A stretch of DNA of 64,000 bases from positions 32,001 to 96,000 of IMG/VR virus record IMGVR_UViG_3300028591_000128; one strand, 5' to 3'. The position numbers and the translations under genes are program-made. The stretch is from a virus (Duplodnaviria; Caudoviricetes). Shown piece by piece: positions 58 through 33,825 of this stretch (positions are counted from its first letter, which is position 1; each line of letters starts with the position of its first letter). The notes under the pieces were generated by a model. It was given only the letters and a program-made list of their open reading frames with translations, was not told the origin of the DNA and made no database searches.

Positions 58-799
58 TTTTGATACCTATGTAATTCCATACCTAAACAAAACATTATTC
101 CAAGCCAATTAAATCATCCTCTCATTTGACACCTATGTAATTTAATCATCAATCAAAACTTCTGATAAATATGCAGTTGGTGGTCATGATTTGATACCTG
201 TGTAATTTCATAGTTTATCAAAACTATAACGTATTACCATTGAGTTTGACTATGTTTGATACCTATATAACTTTGCAGTCTGTCAAAACCGGTATCTTAC
301 CTAAGCCGTTTTCCACAGGTTTGATGCCTATGTAAACTCACAGTCTAACAAAACCAAGATGTTCCTGTCGATGCCATCAAGGAAGTTTGACATCAGTGTA
401 ATTTCATAGCCCAACAAAACTGATAAGCAAATAAGACGAAAATGCCGCTCAGAGTTTGACACCTATGTAATTTCACAGTCCAACAAAATCCTCAGACAAA
501 TACCTGTTCGACACCTGTGTAATTTCATCGTCTACCAAAACTCCACAATGATTGACTTGAAATACCCCTTCGTTTGACACCTGTGTAACTTCATGGTTCA
601 ACAAACCGAACCGCTATCCAAATTACGCTTAGTTTGACACCCGTGTAATTTCACAGTTCATCAAAACAACATATGCATGGGAAATGGAGCCGCCAACGTT
701 TGACACCTGTGTAATTTCACAGTTCAACAAAACGAATATGCGCTGGAACAGTTCTATCAGAAAGTTTGACACCCGTGTAATTTCACAGTCCAACAAAAC
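58..799 (-). CRISPR. CRISPR array: 12 repeats of 36 nt (minus-strand consensus GTTTTGTTGAACTGTGAAATTACACAGGTGTCAAAC) and 11 spacers
   Basis: Repeats read at 58-93, 124-159, 189-224, 254-289, 319-354, 385-420, 454-489, 506-541, 572-607, 632-667, 698-733, 764-799. Spacers are 30,29,29,29,30,33,16,30,24,30,30 nt and unique. Repeats degenerate progressively toward low coordinates, which places the leader at the 800 end. Confidence 0.95.
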
Positions 800-806
800 C
801 TCAAAT
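800..806 (-). promoter_or_regulatory. ATTTGAG leader-repeat junction (type II-A leader-anchoring-like motif)
   Basis: Plus strand ctcaaat abuts repeat 764-799, so the minus strand reads ATTTGAG|GTTTTG. This is the junction known from S. thermophilus CRISPR1-type II-A arrays. Confidence 0.7.
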
Positions 807-818
807 CACACGTATTCA

Positions 819-908
819 GTTTTGACAGAGCATATTTACAAAGGCTTGGTGAGTGTGTTATAGATTGGATGTTCAATCATACCTCACCTTAAGGCCGTCA
901 AATCGGCC
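819..908 (-). ncRNA. Scaffold A: putative tracrRNA for the array (hairpin with AUUUGA loop, GGUGAG/CUCACC stem, anti-repeat)
   Basis: Minus strand reads GGCCG-ATTTGA-CGGCC ... GGTGAG ... CTCACC ... TGTAAATATGCTCTGTCAAAAC. The last part (819-840) is complementary to the repeat 5' part (GTTTTG...TTACA), and the loop is complementary to the repeat 3' end TCAAA. Confidence 0.7.
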
Positions 909-976
909 CTGTATATTAAATTTTATATTTGAATTTAACAGATTCTTCTGATTTTCATACACCTCCAGGGCCAGTG

Positions 977-1007
977 GTTTGATGCTTATGCTATCCATAG
1001 TTTCAAC
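977..1007 (-). repeat. Solitary degenerate CRISPR repeat
   Basis: gtttgatgcttatgctatccatagtttcaac aligns with the array repeat gtttgacacctgtgtaatttcacagttcaac. Confidence 0.5.
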
Positions 1008-1123
1008 ATTTGACACCTATGCAATCATGATAGTTGAATCATGTAGGATTGCAAGAGCTTAGTGAGTGTGTTACAGACAATGCTGAGACCATCCTGCCTC
1101 ACTTTACGGCTGTCAAATCAGCC
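1008..1123 (-). ncRNA. Scaffold B: second copy, fused in cis to a repeat half (single-guide-like)
   Basis: GGCTG-ATTTGA-CAGCC hairpin and AGTGAG/CTCACT stem, then a TGCAATC..CATGAT / ATCATG-ATTGCA hairpin running into TAGGTGTCAAAT (repeat 3' end). Confidence 0.65.
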
Positions 1124-1147
1124 GGTTAGTATAATAACAATTCTGCC

Positions 1148-1186
1148 GCTTGATATCTATGTAATTATCTGTATTCCATCAATAAC
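1148..1186 (-). repeat. Solitary degenerate CRISPR repeat
   Basis: gcttgatatctatgtaattatctgtattccatcaataac retains ttgaY..ctatgtaatt and the terminal aa.aac of the array repeat. Confidence 0.5.
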
Positions 1187-1274
1187 TTTGATATCTACTT
1201 AGACATAGACTCGGTGAGTGCGTTATAAGCAAGAAAAATCTGCTATGCAACACCATAAGGCTGTCAAATCAACC
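1187..1274 (-). ncRNA. Scaffold C: third copy, overlapping the stop codon of the Cas12f-like gene (omega-RNA-like position)
   Basis: GGTTG-ATTTGA-CAGCC pairs only on the minus strand, through a G:U pair. It is followed by a GGTG..CACC stem and a short ATGTCTA/TAGATAT hairpin ending in TCAAA. Confidence 0.6.
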
Positions 1275-2603
1275 AATTACCGTCATATTTTTAGCCTTAT
1301 TATAGGCATGACTTATCGTTTTACCGCAATGAGGACAAGTGAATGATACTTCCTGTGTCCACTCGAATACCTTCGGAATGACTTCTTCTGTACAGAATAC
1401 TTCTCCACATGAACTACATACATTCCGGACTGTCCGAAGAACATCAGTCTTTTTATCTGTCTTATCAGCCATCTTACTTGTGGTTACAACAATACCCTCA
1501 CGTTCTGCCTTATAGGTAATGAACTGCACCAACTGATAATAAGACCAATTCCGGAGCAATACCGGGTAATCATCAAGATCAGACTTCGTTACGTCTTCTA
1601 CAACGATAGCTGATACTTTATTCTCCTTTGCAAACTCTACAACCATTTTACTAAGATTATGGTTATATGTCTGCACATAATTCTTCTCGTAAGATTTATG
1701 TGTTTCAAGTTTTGCCAACTTCTTTCCACGACCATGCCCACCATTGGAATACTTTAAAGCTCTCTGAAGATTCTCAAAGTGGATCTGAATGTCCTTGCGT
1801 TTTGCTACAAGATCATTCTTTATTGATCCACCAATCTCATGTTCATCATCATCTGTAGAAAGTGCGGCAACAAGACATTTATCATATCCAAGAGCAAGTC
1901 CCATGATCTTACCATGTTCAGGTATATATTCTTCTGCATCCTTCTCAATCTTAACGGAAAGATTTAAAATTATCTTACCTTTGTTCGTGATTTGAATCGT
2001 GCTACCACAAACCTTATAATGTTCTGGATCGGTTACAATAGATTCCAAAAGTGATGGAAGGAACTTATCCGGACTCTTATTCTTACCTGCACCAAGATAC
2101 AGCTTGAAATGGATTCCGTTTACAAACTTAAAGAAATAGGCATTTACTGTCTTTTCCGTTCCATCATCTGTAGTGTATGTATCATCACCAGTATAAATAG
2201 TAATGAATCTGCTTGGAACCATAAGTGGGAAATCTCTTTTGTAAAATGGTAGATTCCGCTCACCCTTTGCAAGTCCATTCCTCAATGCTATGGAGAAATC
2301 CTGCTTTACTTTCATACCACAGTTACCAGCCATACCCAAACCCTTTGCCTGTTTCATATCATATATGGCGGTATTTGTGTTCCGGAAGATCATCTTCATC
2401 TCTTCCTTGAAGTTCGGATCGTTGAAATTCTTATCATACTTATAATACAGGCATCCAACCTGTGACATATAAGTATTCAAGATACAATACTGATTGTAGA
2501 TCCCATCACGAAGGTACTGATATACCCTATCCCGTTCTTCTTTATCACCTACCGGGAATAACTGAATCTTCTTCGTTGTGATTGTAGTTGTTTTCTTCTG
2601 CAT
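1269..2603 (-). CDS. cas12f: Cas12f/TnpB-family RNA-guided protein, predicted nuclease-dead (444 aa)
   Basis: Cas12f1-like motifs GGHGRGKKL, YNHNLSKMVVEFA, IVVEDV, RNWSYYQL..YKAEREGI and a CxxC...CxxC zinc finger. RuvC-I reads MGLALG (A237 in place of D) and RuvC-III reads SHAYNKAKN (A433 in place of D). E336 is retained. The gene is adjacent to the CRISPR array. Confidence 0.85.
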   Translation of the reverse strand: MQKKTTTITTKKIQLFPVGDKEERDRVYQYLRDGIYNQYCILNTYMSQVGCLYYKYDKNFNDPNFKEEMKMIFRNTNTAIYDMKQAKGLGMAGNCGMKVKQDFSIALRNGLAKGERNLPFYKRDFPLMVPSRFITIYTGDDTYTTDDGTEKTVNAYFFKFVNGIHFKLYLGAGKNKSPDKFLPSLLESIVTDPEHYKVCGSTIQITNKGKIILNLSVKIEKDAEEYIPEHGKIMGLALGYDKCLVAALSTDDDEHEIGGSIKNDLVAKRKDIQIHFENLQRALKYSNGGHGRGKKLAKLETHKSYEKNYVQTYNHNLSKMVVEFAKENKVSAIVVEDVTKSDLDDYPVLLRNWSYYQLVQFITYKAEREGIVVTTSKMADKTDKKTDVLRTVRNVCSSCGEVFCTEEVIPKVFEWTQEVSFTCPHCGKTISHAYNKAKNMTVIG

Positions 2604-2961: not shown

Positions 2962-3624
2962 CTAGTCAATTGAAATCTTAGCAAACTTATCTATATCCTT
3001 TTGTGTATCTATATCACAAGTATAGTCATTGATTACTGTATAGTTTGTGTAATCTATCTTGTTAATAGGTGTTCCCTTAACTACCTGCCAGAACTCCCAA
3101 GCTATTGGTGCTCTTCTGAATTTCTTTTGATCTGCAAGTTTCCTACATTCTTCTTGTACTTTTTTCAAATGATTTGTATTTACAACTTTGAAAGCAAATG
3201 GTTCTGCGTAAGGTTTGATATATTCTTTTGAGAATGGTGGAGCAGATGCGAAGAATTCGATATCATCTGTAGATGTGTTCACGATAATATTGATCGCGTT
3301 TTGCGAGAACACAACATCCCCCATAAGGTAGCAAGCAGGCTCACCGATTGGGTAAAAGGCATCGCACCAATACCCGGAAGAATGTCCTGGCCGGTGTACT
3401 ACCCAATTATTGTTATTCATCCATAGATAATTTACATCTATATCATGACAATGTACCTTTATAGATTCGACATTTGTTGATACATAAATATCCTCATGCG
3501 GAATACCGGATTTTTCTAATAATCTTGCGGTCCGCTGTATAAGGGTTTCACCATTGATCCTAACCAACTGCCTTGGCAATTCCCAATGTTCATACTTACC
3601 ACCTGCCATAATAATGTAAATCAT
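2962..3624 (-). CDS. Nucleotidyltransferase-like protein (NTP_transferase/LicC/MobA fold)
   Basis: N-terminal IIMAGG...PRQLVRINGETLIQRT, internal YLMGDVVF, C-terminal DIDT. Confidence 0.65.
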   Translation of the reverse strand: MIYIIMAGGKYEHWELPRQLVRINGETLIQRTARLLEKSGIPHEDIYVSTNVESIKVHCHDIDVNYLWMNNNNWVVHRPGHSSGYWCDAFYPIGEPACYLMGDVVFSQNAINIIVNTSTDDIEFFASAPPFSKEYIKPYAEPFAFKVVNTNHLKKVQEECRKLADQKKFRRAPIAWEFWQVVKGTPINKIDYTNYTVINDYTCDIDTQKDIDKFAKISID

Positions 3625-31290: not shown

Positions 31291-33825
31291 CTATTCAGTA
31301 TCAGAATCCGAATCAGAATCCGTATCGGAATCAGGTTCATACTCATTGAAGAATACACCGTAATCAATTCGCATGAACTGTCCGGATGTTTTTGTAAATG
31401 GTTGTGAAGGTGTCCAAACAGTTGCAAGATAATTTTGCATACGCATTACAGTTATAGTACAATCTACGGTAGTTGAATTTGATACTACAATATAGGAAAT
31501 CATCGGCTTATCATTAGATTTACATACTGTAGAAGTTGTTGCAGGTCCATATGTCATATTTACAGGGGAAATAGTGTTAGAATCAAAGTTGAATACACTT
31601 GTATTGTTACCATAACCATTACACAGTAACATTCTTCCAGAACCCAAGGATCTACTTGTCAGTTCCCAACCAAATGTGTTTGTGCATTCTTGGAAATTTC
31701 CCCAAGTACCATTTGTACGTTTCATTGAATAGATTATGTCAGTTTCACGAAGTTCCGAGTAAACATATCCATAGTACCCATTTATCCAAGCAACTGTGTC
31801 CTTATCAATCCAAATAGCTTCACGCATAGTATACATCGTACGAGTTCCAGAATATAAATTAGGTATGATAGATTCTGTGCATGTACCGGCTACGGGATCA
31901 ATTTCCCACATCTTCTGATCATAACCATTACCCCACTCTGTACCACCTTGATTAGCACTTAAGCATATTAAAGTTGTACCATTATCTTGAATGAGTCTGT
32001 TACTTACCGTTATTCCTTGCGTATAACCACTATATGTAAGATTTGTCTTCAGATCCGCAGGCATAGTCAGTTCCACAGGTTCTTGCATTTCTTGACATGT
32101 AGATGTAGTCCCCTTAAGATTCAATTCTGTCAATGGCAACCTGTATTTATGGATAATTATTTTATCATTAGTAGTATCAAACACAACGCCATATACGGAT
32201 GAATCAGATATACTGAGCCTACACGGAACACCTATAATAGTGTAAGGAGTTGAACTACCATATGCATTAGTTAATTCAGCAGATGAAGGTTTACGAACAT
32301 TACTTATGGCGTTTCCCATACCTGCCCAACCCCAGTTACGGGATGTTAAAGATATTGCCGCAATAGTCCCATTTCCTTGACTTAATCCCCACTCCCAAAC
32401 GAAATGGTAAGAACCGTCATCTTTCCAACCGCTTCCATCTGTACCTTCAGCAACCCAATTACCCATTTCTGATGGATCACCAGTTGTGCTACCATTTGAT
32501 ACATCATAAGCAGCATTAGCAACCATCGATGTACTAGATGGTGGAAGTACAGTAGATGCGGATGGAGTTACAGTAGAATCAAATGCAAGCATGCCACCTA
32601 ATAGTTGTTTAACTAGATTATTTCGATCAGTGTTATCACTATTCATAAATCCGCAGTTTGTAAAGAACTCTGCAAGACCATTGGTTTGCATATTATCTGA
32701 TTCAATTACCGTCTCCTGTTGCGTAGCATCATCTGTTAATGTTACTTTTACATGACCTGTAAAACTTAAAGGAGATGGACTTGTAGATAATTGTGTATTT
32801 GCAATATGCTCAAGTGCTTGAACAATAGTTCCACCAGAACCACTTGGAAATTCCATCCATTGTCCGAGGATCTTCCCATATACAACAGATATACCATTTG
32901 AACCGTATTGCAGATAGATATCACCATCATTACCAAGTGACACTGTAGGTTCAGTAGTACCTTGATAAGTATGTGCTCCACCTGAACTGTCTTTAATCGC
33001 TTTAAGTTGTGATGCAATATCTGTTTTCACCCAACTATTAGCATCCCAAGCCCCTGTAGTGTTATCATATCTGCATACGTAATATTCGTTCTGATAAACT
33101 ACATATTCACCAGCAGAATACGTCCTACTTGGAACATAATCTTGTCCTACAATAGACTTTCTTGTATTTAATTCTGTGATAATTCCTTCGGCAGTAACAA
33201 GTCTTGCATTTATTGCGGTCACATTGGATGACAATGTACTAAGGTCAGATGCTACCGAAGATATAGCAGTTCTCAGATCCTGAATCAACGAAGAAATGGA
33301 CTTGACTTCAAATGCATATGACACACTAGACCATGTACCAGATATGTTATTTAAAGTACATCTATACAGTATGTTGTCATGTATAACTAAATCACCTTCA
33401 TTGTAAGTATGATTTTCAATGAAGTTTTCCCCAATGTCTTCAATTAATATTTCTACAATATTATTTAATCCGGATATCTGAGTTGTATGTGTATCTACAA
33501 CAACACTTATATCGTGTGTTTTAGTATCAATGTACCATACAACTGGAATTTCATCCCAATCATGGGAATCAAATGTTCCTGATGTTGGAGATGTAGCAAT
33601 GTAGAAATTGTCACTGAATGTACATGTATCTCCGGTATCATATGAAGAATTAGGATCATATGGTGGAGCAATAACTGATTGTGATATTCCAGAGGATGGT
33701 CCGCCTCCACCACCAATATCAGATACTTTTATTCGTCTAGTGCCACTATTAGCATTATCTATCAACAAGTAATCGTTATCTTGATATGTAGTTGTTGATG
33801 GATATTGGTTAATTCTAGTACCCAT
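31291..33825 (-). CDS. Tail fibre-like protein with three CBM5/12-like aromatic repeats
   Basis: YDPNSSYDTGDTC, FIENHTYNEGDLVIHDNILYRC, YVPSRTYSAGEYVVYQNEYYVC; GNDGDIYLQ motif. Confidence 0.65.
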   Translation of the reverse strand: MGTRINQYPSTTTYQDNDYLLIDNANSGTRRIKVSDIGGGGGPSSGISQSVIAPPYDPNSSYDTGDTCTFSDNFYIATSPTSGTFDSHDWDEIPVVWYIDTKTHDISVVVDTHTTQISGLNNIVEILIEDIGENFIENHTYNEGDLVIHDNILYRCTLNNISGTWSSVSYAFEVKSISSLIQDLRTAISSVASDLSTLSSNVTAINARLVTAEGIITELNTRKSIVGQDYVPSRTYSAGEYVVYQNEYYVCRYDNTTGAWDANSWVKTDIASQLKAIKDSSGGAHTYQGTTEPTVSLGNDGDIYLQYGSNGISVVYGKILGQWMEFPSGSGGTIVQALEHIANTQLSTSPSPLSFTGHVKVTLTDDATQQETVIESDNMQTNGLAEFFTNCGFMNSDNTDRNNLVKQLLGGMLAFDSTVTPSASTVLPPSSTSMVANAAYDVSNGSTTGDPSEMGNWVAEGTDGSGWKDDGSYHFVWEWGLSQGNGTIAAISLTSRNWGWAGMGNAISNVRKPSSAELTNAYGSSTPYTIIGVPCRLSISDSSVYGVVFDTTNDKIIIHKYRLPLTELNLKGTTSTCQEMQEPVELTMPADLKTNLTYSGYTQGITVSNRLIQDNGTTLICLSANQGGTEWGNGYDQKMWEIDPVAGTCTESIIPNLYSGTRTMYTMREAIWIDKDTVAWINGYYGYVYSELRETDIIYSMKRTNGTWGNFQECTNTFGWELTSRSLGSGRMLLCNGYGNNTSVFNFDSNTISPVNMTYGPATTSTVCKSNDKPMISYIVVSNSTTVDCTITVMRMQNYLATVWTPSQPFTKTSGQFMRIDYGVFFNEYEPDSDTDSDSDSDTE

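Follow-up and report, generated by a model that had tools for sequence, protein, structure and literature searches.

We analyzed a 64,000-nt stretch of DNA (the window; positions 32,001 to 96,000) from IMG/VR record IMGVR_UViG_3300028591_000128, which represents one virus genome of 106,310 nt with a CheckV completeness of 71%. All features given window coordinates below lie on the minus strand. Near its left edge, among phage genes, the window carries a CRISPR array (array A, 58..799), three tracr-like RNA scaffolds, and a gene for a 444-amino-acid effector of the Cas12f/TnpB family (1269..2603). The genes upstream of the effector gene (2962-3624), which encode a MobA-like nucleotidyltransferase-domain protein and a capsular-synthesis-like protein, are conserved among phages (L003, L133), and L133 adds a T4 gp13-like gene; this conservation supports a large tailed-phage context.

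The effector matches the solved structures 9nzp (1.7e-49) and 8hr5 (3e-40), the latter named CnCas12f in PMC13472631, as well as the profiles for the Cas12f1-like TNB domain (PF07282, 3.7e-7) and guided_TnpB (2.9e-25), and it has the split RuvC and zinc-finger TNB domain of Cas12f homologs. Its RuvC triad reads A-E-A instead of D-E-D (aspartate to alanine in both RuvC-I and RuvC-III), with the glutamate and the zinc finger kept. The aspartate loss is common to about 60 protein clusters of the effector's clade (40 to 96% identity), while the triad is intact in a sister clade at 37 to 40% identity. Across 22 sequences of the former clade (43 to 81% identity), 53 columns are invariant; the inactivation is conserved and the rest of the protein is under constraint. 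We predict that the effector is nuclease-dead and refer to its clade as the dead clade. With both aspartates gone, and judging by the analogous TldR, Cas12m, Cas12c, and dCas12f, it would bind DNA without cutting it and may repress its targets. The phage protein thereby resembles the dead TnpB/Cas12f regulators (TldR, sigma-E-linked dCas12f, and the array-linked dCas12f proteins mentioned in PMC13472631), which share clade-wide RuvC loss and an expected RNA-guided DNA binding without cleavage. Unlike these regulators, the locus sits in a phage and has multi-spacer arrays with signs of turnover, its protein is of full length and retains the zinc finger, and neither a sigma factor nor an HTH partner was seen beside the effector gene.

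Three copies of an 80-nt scaffold, each an ATTTGA-loop hairpin plus a long-range stem, lie between the effector gene and array A. Scaffold A (1201..1282) overlaps the stop codon of the effector gene and has a degenerate repeat-like piece downstream (1148..1200); scaffold B (1049..1131) has two abutting degenerate repeat-like pieces downstream, with no spacer between them (971..1025); and scaffold C (836..916), in which hairpin 1 with its ATTTGA loop precedes the long-range stem, sits directly upstream of array A. The pieces that follow scaffolds A and B have neither the motif ATTTGAG (see below) nor regular spacers and may be decayed arrays or fused single-guide units; the sequences in these positions have no target in the 106-kb phage genome better than shuffles. 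No Rfam family matched in the window. An anti-repeat (819..840), complementary to the first 6 to 11 nt of the repeats, lies 18 to 19 nt upstream of repeat 1, which confirms the close spacing of the two elements in the original prediction.

Comparison with relatives supports a structured guide RNA. Compensatory changes occur in 8 of 14 consensus pairs of the scaffold (11 sequences from eight loci), and the loop of hairpin 1 is complementary to the 3′ end of the repeat, in three loop/repeat-end variants: TTTGA/TCAAA here, TTCAG/CTGAA in L006, and TTTTG/CAAAA in L007 and L020. In silico, the scaffold stems covary and the tracr is predicted to pair with the repeat, including a pseudoknot at the repeat 3′ end. 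An AAAC:UUUG pseudoknot is reported to be general for Cas12 tracrRNAs (bioRxiv 10.1101/2025.01.20.633832). The AAAC end of the repeat, which had been taken as a sign of type II-A, seems better explained by this covarying pseudoknot and is probably not in itself a type II-A mark; that part of the earlier interpretation does not hold.

Array anatomy and the leader junction

Array A comprises 12 repeats of 36 nt and 11 spacers, running from a leader end at 799 to a degenerate trailer end at 58. Repeats start at 799, 733, 667, 607, 541, 489, 420, 354, 289, 224, 159, and 93, and the spacers measure 30, 30, 24, 30, 16, 33, 30, 29, 29, 29, and 30 nt. Ten of the 12 repeats start with GTTTTG and eight end with AAAC. 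Mismatches to the consensus climb from 1 at the 799 end, where repeat 1 marks the best-conserved end of the array, to 9 at the 58 end, and the leader is therefore at 799. The 3′ end of this leader, ATTTGAG (800..806), abuts repeat 1 and is identical to the leader-anchoring motif of group-1 type II-A arrays. The original reading of the sequence (36-nt repeats with GTTTTG and AAAC ends, spacers mostly of 29 to 30 nt, and ATTTGAG 5′ of the best-kept repeat) is thus correct on the minus strand across 58 to 799. Across the 212,620 positions of the whole genome (both strands), there are nine copies of ATTTGAG, two of which are the junctions of array A and of a second array, array B. With the repeats in place as well, we conclude that the array is real and that its junction is not a chance match.

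Array B lies 1.6 kb past the left edge of the window and has five or six units, its own scaffold upstream, and the same ATTTGAG junction. The repeat period is 65 to 66 nt in both arrays. The anti-repeat upstream of array B matches the starts of the array B repeats, such that anti-repeat and repeat covary between the two arrays. A 429-amino-acid open reading frame on the minus strand between the arrays (L096 1630-2919, genome 30629-31918) was considered as a second effector and rejected: it encodes an ordinary TnpB (PF01385, 5e-27) and is missing from this position in L002, where only 193 nt separate the two arrays, which marks it as an IS insertion. DNA similar to this TnpB is also found in the Lachnospiraceae genome G320, beside an unrelated array of 33-nt repeats.

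The junction motif is widespread among relatives of the effector. TTTGAG abuts repeat 1 in five further dead-clade loci (L003, L004, L005, L006, and L134) and in RuvC-intact relatives (L007 and L008), a set that spans 36 to 82% protein identity, and the full ATTTGAG is present at the junction in L001, L003, L005, L006, and L007. Over the same range, the linker between scaffold and motif changes in sequence and varies from 0 to 35 nt in length, and the 3′ end of the repeat varies across the Cas12f subfamily. The junction itself reads ATTTTAG in L020, is mutated in L133, and also varies in L004 and in the second array of L003.

This distribution bears on the possibility that RNA function, and not an integrase, maintains the motifs: GTTTTG, AAAC, and ATTTGAG could have converged on their type II-A-like form because guide RNA pairing, the pseudoknot, and processing require them. 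Such an origin would suit the two ends of the repeat, since the 5′ end pairs with the anti-repeat and the 3′ end with the hairpin-1 loop, covarying with it across the family in a pseudoknot of the general Cas12 kind. It does not suit the junction. ATTTGAG is unchanged in L006 and L007, where the hairpin loop and the repeat end change together, and therefore it is not their RNA partner; it is also unpaired in the consensus fold and missing behind the array-less scaffolds A and B. Nor would RNA function explain why the 29- to 30-nt repeats of Clostridial relatives are here replaced by 36-nt repeats with 30-nt spacers. We regard RNA-driven convergence as very improbable.

The original prediction also held that a TnpB/Cas12f scaffold had captured a type II-A array. 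As an event in this phage, such a capture proved incorrect, because the array type is shared by the whole subfamily, including L007 and L020; judging from these loci, the II-A-style array is probably ancestral to the Cas12f subfamily, RuvC-intact chromosomal members (L007, L020) included. More distant RuvC-intact relatives, in Clostridium, Peptacetobacter, and Cellulosilyticum, have arrays of 29- to 30-nt repeats. In L013, L014, L018, L019, L021, and L073, the array lies 350 to 420 nt downstream of the effector gene, and no cas genes were found in the flanks of six Clostridial RuvC-intact loci. In genome G411, the Cas12f-linked repeat of L021 agrees at 27 of 29 positions with the repeat of L153, a cas1-linked array from a different contig. 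For this relative, the likeness to a cas1-bearing system is seen within a single genome; for the phage, it is seen at the level of the presumed host family. From these comparisons, the Cas12f lineage appears to depend in general on whichever adaptation system is resident, with the array type following the host.

Resemblance to type II-A arrays of the presumed host family

The closest genome-borne relatives of the phage locus come from Lachnospiraceae and Erysipelotrichaceae metagenome-assembled genomes (MAGs). We took Lachnospiraceae, the family of MAG G002, as the presumed host family and examined 401 genomes, 42 of which encode Csn2. Group-1 type II-A loci conserve ATTTGAG/GTTT at the leader-repeat junction, and the last 10 nt of the leader together with the first repeat reportedly suffice for adaptation in this group (PMC5382924). 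Consistent with this, a sample of 13 csn2-linked arrays of the presumed host family includes 11 in which ATTTGAG runs straight into a 36-nt repeat and the period is 66 nt. Both the published work and the host-family arrays therefore uphold the claim that the junction and the 36/30 geometry of the phage array are those of group-1 type II-A. The pattern ATTTGAG+GTTTT+N27+AAAC was found in 0 of the 401 family genomes; host II-A repeats start with GTTTGAG, not GTTTT.

Beyond the junction, the relationship of the repeats is one of opposite strands. In global alignments, the phage repeats reach best scores of 10 to 14 against II-A repeats, compared with 8 for the best of 1,000 shuffles and at most 3 for control arrays of other types (29- to 33-nt repeats). 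In the same sense, only the repeat termini match, with a longest common stretch of 6 to 8 nt. When inverted, most of the 17 repeat copies match the first 25 nt of II-A repeats at 20 to 23 of 25 positions (mean, 19.5), whereas controls that keep the first six letters average 12.8 and never exceed 19. The other 11 nt of the repeat have no match to II-A repeats. The longest common stretch averages 9.1 nt in the inverted orientation (maximum, 16), versus 6.5 nt in the same sense. BLAST matches inside the II-A arrays of G261, G355, and G292 are likewise all inverted relative to csn2. Apart from the repeat similarity itself, the 13 II-A arrays and the phage have no exact 16-mer in common, and in distant family members no similarity of the repeat body to II-A repeats rises above shuffles. 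The suggested search of the repeat against Lachnospiraceae type II-A systems thus gave a divided answer: junction, period, and alignment score match, but the body of the repeat does so only as its reverse complement.

On these alignments, the part of the repeat that enters the Cas12f guide appears to be the antisense of the part that enters the Cas9 crRNA, while the junction keeps the II-A orientation. Owing to the inverted ends of II-A repeats, turning the repeat around leaves GTTT available at either end. The antisense match of 25 nt of the phage repeats to the array of G261 (20 to 23 of 25) raises the further idea that the phage arrays hybridize host Cas9 pre-crRNA as mimics of the tracrRNA anti-repeat, disturbing Cas9 immunity while borrowing the II-A integrase. 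The diversity of the phage repeats could then serve as a panel covering different host II-A repeat variants. We consider such mimicry a long shot.

Set against group-1 II-A arrays (the CRISPR1 type of S. thermophilus and Lachnospiraceae arrays L116 to L127), the phage arrays are alike in the ATTTGAG-GTTT junction, 36-nt repeats, spacers of about 30 nt, semi-palindromic repeat ends, and polarized gain at the junction (see below). They differ in that no cas9-cas1-cas2-csn2 operon is linked to the array and none of these four genes lies elsewhere in the phage; in that the repeat lacks homology in the sense of the leader, its body corresponding to the opposite strand of the initial 25 nt of the II-A repeat; and in that the RNA would be used as repeat then spacer, by a Cas12f-type protein with its own tracr. 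Having no cas operon and an inverted repeat body, the locus is not type II-A.

Spacer gain and the source of adaptation enzymes

No Cas1 or Cas2 was found in the source genome, in the record of L001, or in the 253-kb record of L002 (complete according to CheckV), and the phage locus thus has no adaptation module of its own (cas1, cas2, and cas4, as in type V-F1). L001, whose effector is 98% identical to that of the window, carries array A with the same spacer order. Its array B, in contrast to that of the source genome, contains one extra 65-nt unit (a 36-nt repeat and a 29-nt spacer) exactly at the ATTTGAG junction. The first two repeats of this array are 100% identical and all others differ, L001 and the source have identical flanks across the remainder of an alignment of roughly 185 nt, and the extra spacer is seen nowhere else among the fetched loci. 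An indel of a single unit at the junction, with the repeat duplicated unchanged, would be the classic mark of polarized insertion, or of its later loss. The spacer gain at the leader end that the original prediction looked for in related phages is therefore supported by this one unit.

The leader-side spacers of array A, which are the same in the window and L001, differ from these in L002 and L133 and between the latter two. The spacers at 384-225 are common to L002 and in part to L133 and L003: inner spacers 7 and 8 are present in the window, L002, and L133, and spacer 9 is present in the window and L002. The window, L133, L002, and L003 have mosaic arrays, in which blocks shared between phages are interspersed with unshared ones. 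Repeats within an array differ at 1 to 9 of 36 positions, three spacers have shrunk to 16 or 24 nt, and shared spacers carry point mutations. With repeats this diverged and spacers truncated, most units must be old and insertion rare.

A side observation concerns where the shared spacers differ. When window positions 225-384 are compared with L002 (5985-6144), L003 (6386-6414), and L133 (6656-6750), substitutions fall mostly at every third position (4 of 5 in spacer 8, 2 of 2 in spacer 9, and 2 of 3 in spacer 24 of L002/L003), a pattern that would be expected if the spacers follow protein-coding targets.

We favor a model, to which we assign a probability of about 0.55, in which the phage Cas12f arrays gain spacers through group-1 type II-A enzymes of the host and the resulting guides direct the dead Cas12f. 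Array A would be transcribed on the minus strand together with the tracr-like scaffolds. It displays II-A integration signals (the ATTTGAG-GTTT junction, a 36-nt repeat with inverted GTTT/AAAC-type ends, and 29- to 30-nt spacers). In hosts that have a II-A system, Cas1-Cas2-Csn2, perhaps with Cas9, would occasionally add a spacer to the phage array at this junction. [quoted passage not shown] The locus anatomy, the II-A match, the absence of cas1 and cas2, and the one gain are observed, and from them we infer that II-A enzymes do the inserting.

The main problem for II-A feeding of a Cas12 array is PAM logic. In II-A insertion, the PAM-proximal end of the spacer lies away from the leader, while Cas12 needs its PAM beside the leader-side repeat. 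The PAM sides are opposite, and so II-A PAM choice would not serve the effector. The original proposal of acquisition by host Cas1-Cas2-Csn2 thus keeps the lack of phage cas1 and cas2, the junction match, and one gain in its favor, with the rarity of gain and the wrong PAM side against it.

The II-A-like junction and geometry might instead be a frozen relic: an ancestor of the Cas12f subfamily would have taken over a II-A array, on which no II-A enzyme acts any longer and which now changes only by point mutation, deletion, and recombination between the arrays of co-infecting phages. The strong divergence of the repeats, the truncated spacers, the mosaic arrays of the window, L133, L002, and L003, and the mutated junction of L133 are all in keeping with this, as is the finding that neither Csn2 nor Cas9 was found in G001, G005, and G406, three incomplete MAGs that carry relatives with the same array type. 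Two observations count against it. TTTGAG is kept in relatives as distant as 36% protein identity even as the linker beside it changes, and the exact unit with a duplicated repeat in L001 fits integration and is not easily produced by recombination. We consider a frozen relic unlikely.

Insertion in trans might instead be the work of other enzymes, such as type II-C or type I Cas1-Cas2 or an unrecognized phage integrase. In MAG G002, a candidate host that carries an active relative (L008), the only type II genes seen, a full-length cas9 and a type II cas1, lie where a contig ends, and csn2 is not visible there. In G005 and G406, which also carry active relatives, the cas1 genes are linked to other repeat types. 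Both situations leave room for non-II-A machinery. However, the 36/30 geometry with the exact ATTTGAG/GTTT junction is the signature of group-1 II-A, and the other cas1-linked arrays have unrelated repeats of 30 to 37 nt with periods of 69 to 70 nt. Non-II-A machinery is accordingly quite improbable in our judgment.

The locus also invites comparison with type V-F (and former V-U3) Cas12f, represented by CnCas12f (8hr5). The two are alike in the homologous effector (3e-40), the scaffold between gene and array, the pseudoknot with the repeat 3′ end, and the lack of an adaptation module in many members; CRISPR-linked TnpB/Cas12 loci without adaptation genes are noted in PMC10691335. Unlike type V-F, the phage effector lacks both RuvC aspartates, the system is phage-borne with three to four tandem scaffolds, and its repeats are of the II-A type, in contrast to the 29- to 30-nt repeats of Clostridial relatives. 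Because RuvC is dead and an adaptation module is absent, the locus is not canonical V-F. It would work like a Cas12f system with adaptation in trans, outside both II-A and canonical V-F. Adaptation with borrowed machinery has precedents in type IV-A3 with type I-E, in type III with type I, in virus mini-arrays, and in huge-phage arrays without cas1. As in those systems, an effector and array occur here without cas1-cas2, and leader and repeat would mimic a resident system whose integrase could then serve them; the phage case differs in crossing class 2 types (II-A to V), in its inverted repeat body, and in having a dead phage effector as the user. Our literature searches returned no report of the II-A leader-anchoring motif in a type V array.

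If the model is right, acquisition and interference modules can combine across class 2 types (II to V), on a virus, and the immune-memory machinery of the host would program a phage DNA-binding protein against host genes or rival elements. It would further suggest a rule by which Cas12f/TnpB loci without cas1-cas2 take the repeat type of the host's adaptation system, as with the cas1-linked 29- to 30-nt repeats in Cellulosilyticum and the II-A-type repeats in Lachnospiraceae. In practical terms, the system would offer a compact, multiplexed Cas12f that is dead by nature and whose guide RNA parts are defined.

Spacer targets and a candidate host

Self-regulation by the spacers was rejected: none of 17 spacers matched the 106-kb source genome better than shuffles, and the spacers of L002 have no self-targets in its complete 253-kb genome. 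Searches of GenBank phages and plasmids returned no convincing protospacer, and the first 22 nt of spacer 1 matched only L001's own array in IMG/VR. Family genomes (401 for array A; 371 for array B and the new spacer) yielded none that was convincing apart from the lead described next, and protospacers with informative flanks were found in none of these collections (GenBank phages, plasmids, and family genomes).

The lead comes from spacer 11 (94-123), which matches the rumen MAG G002 (L086 1501-1530) at 26 of 30 positions, including 25 of the first 26; about 0.3 such matches are expected by chance, as a rough estimate over all genomes searched. The 5′ flank of this near-match is T-rich and ends in G. 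The near-match lies in a defense island, inside a small open reading frame that overlaps the end of an AbiLi gene (PADLOC, 1.5e-41), and a type I restriction R subunit adjoins the AbiLi operon. We treat the match as a lead, one that hints at possible anti-defense repression. The relative carried by the same MAG (L008, 2500-2620) combines a scaffold and a GTTTGAG junction with just one repeat-like unit and no more repeats, and it may be a one-guide form.
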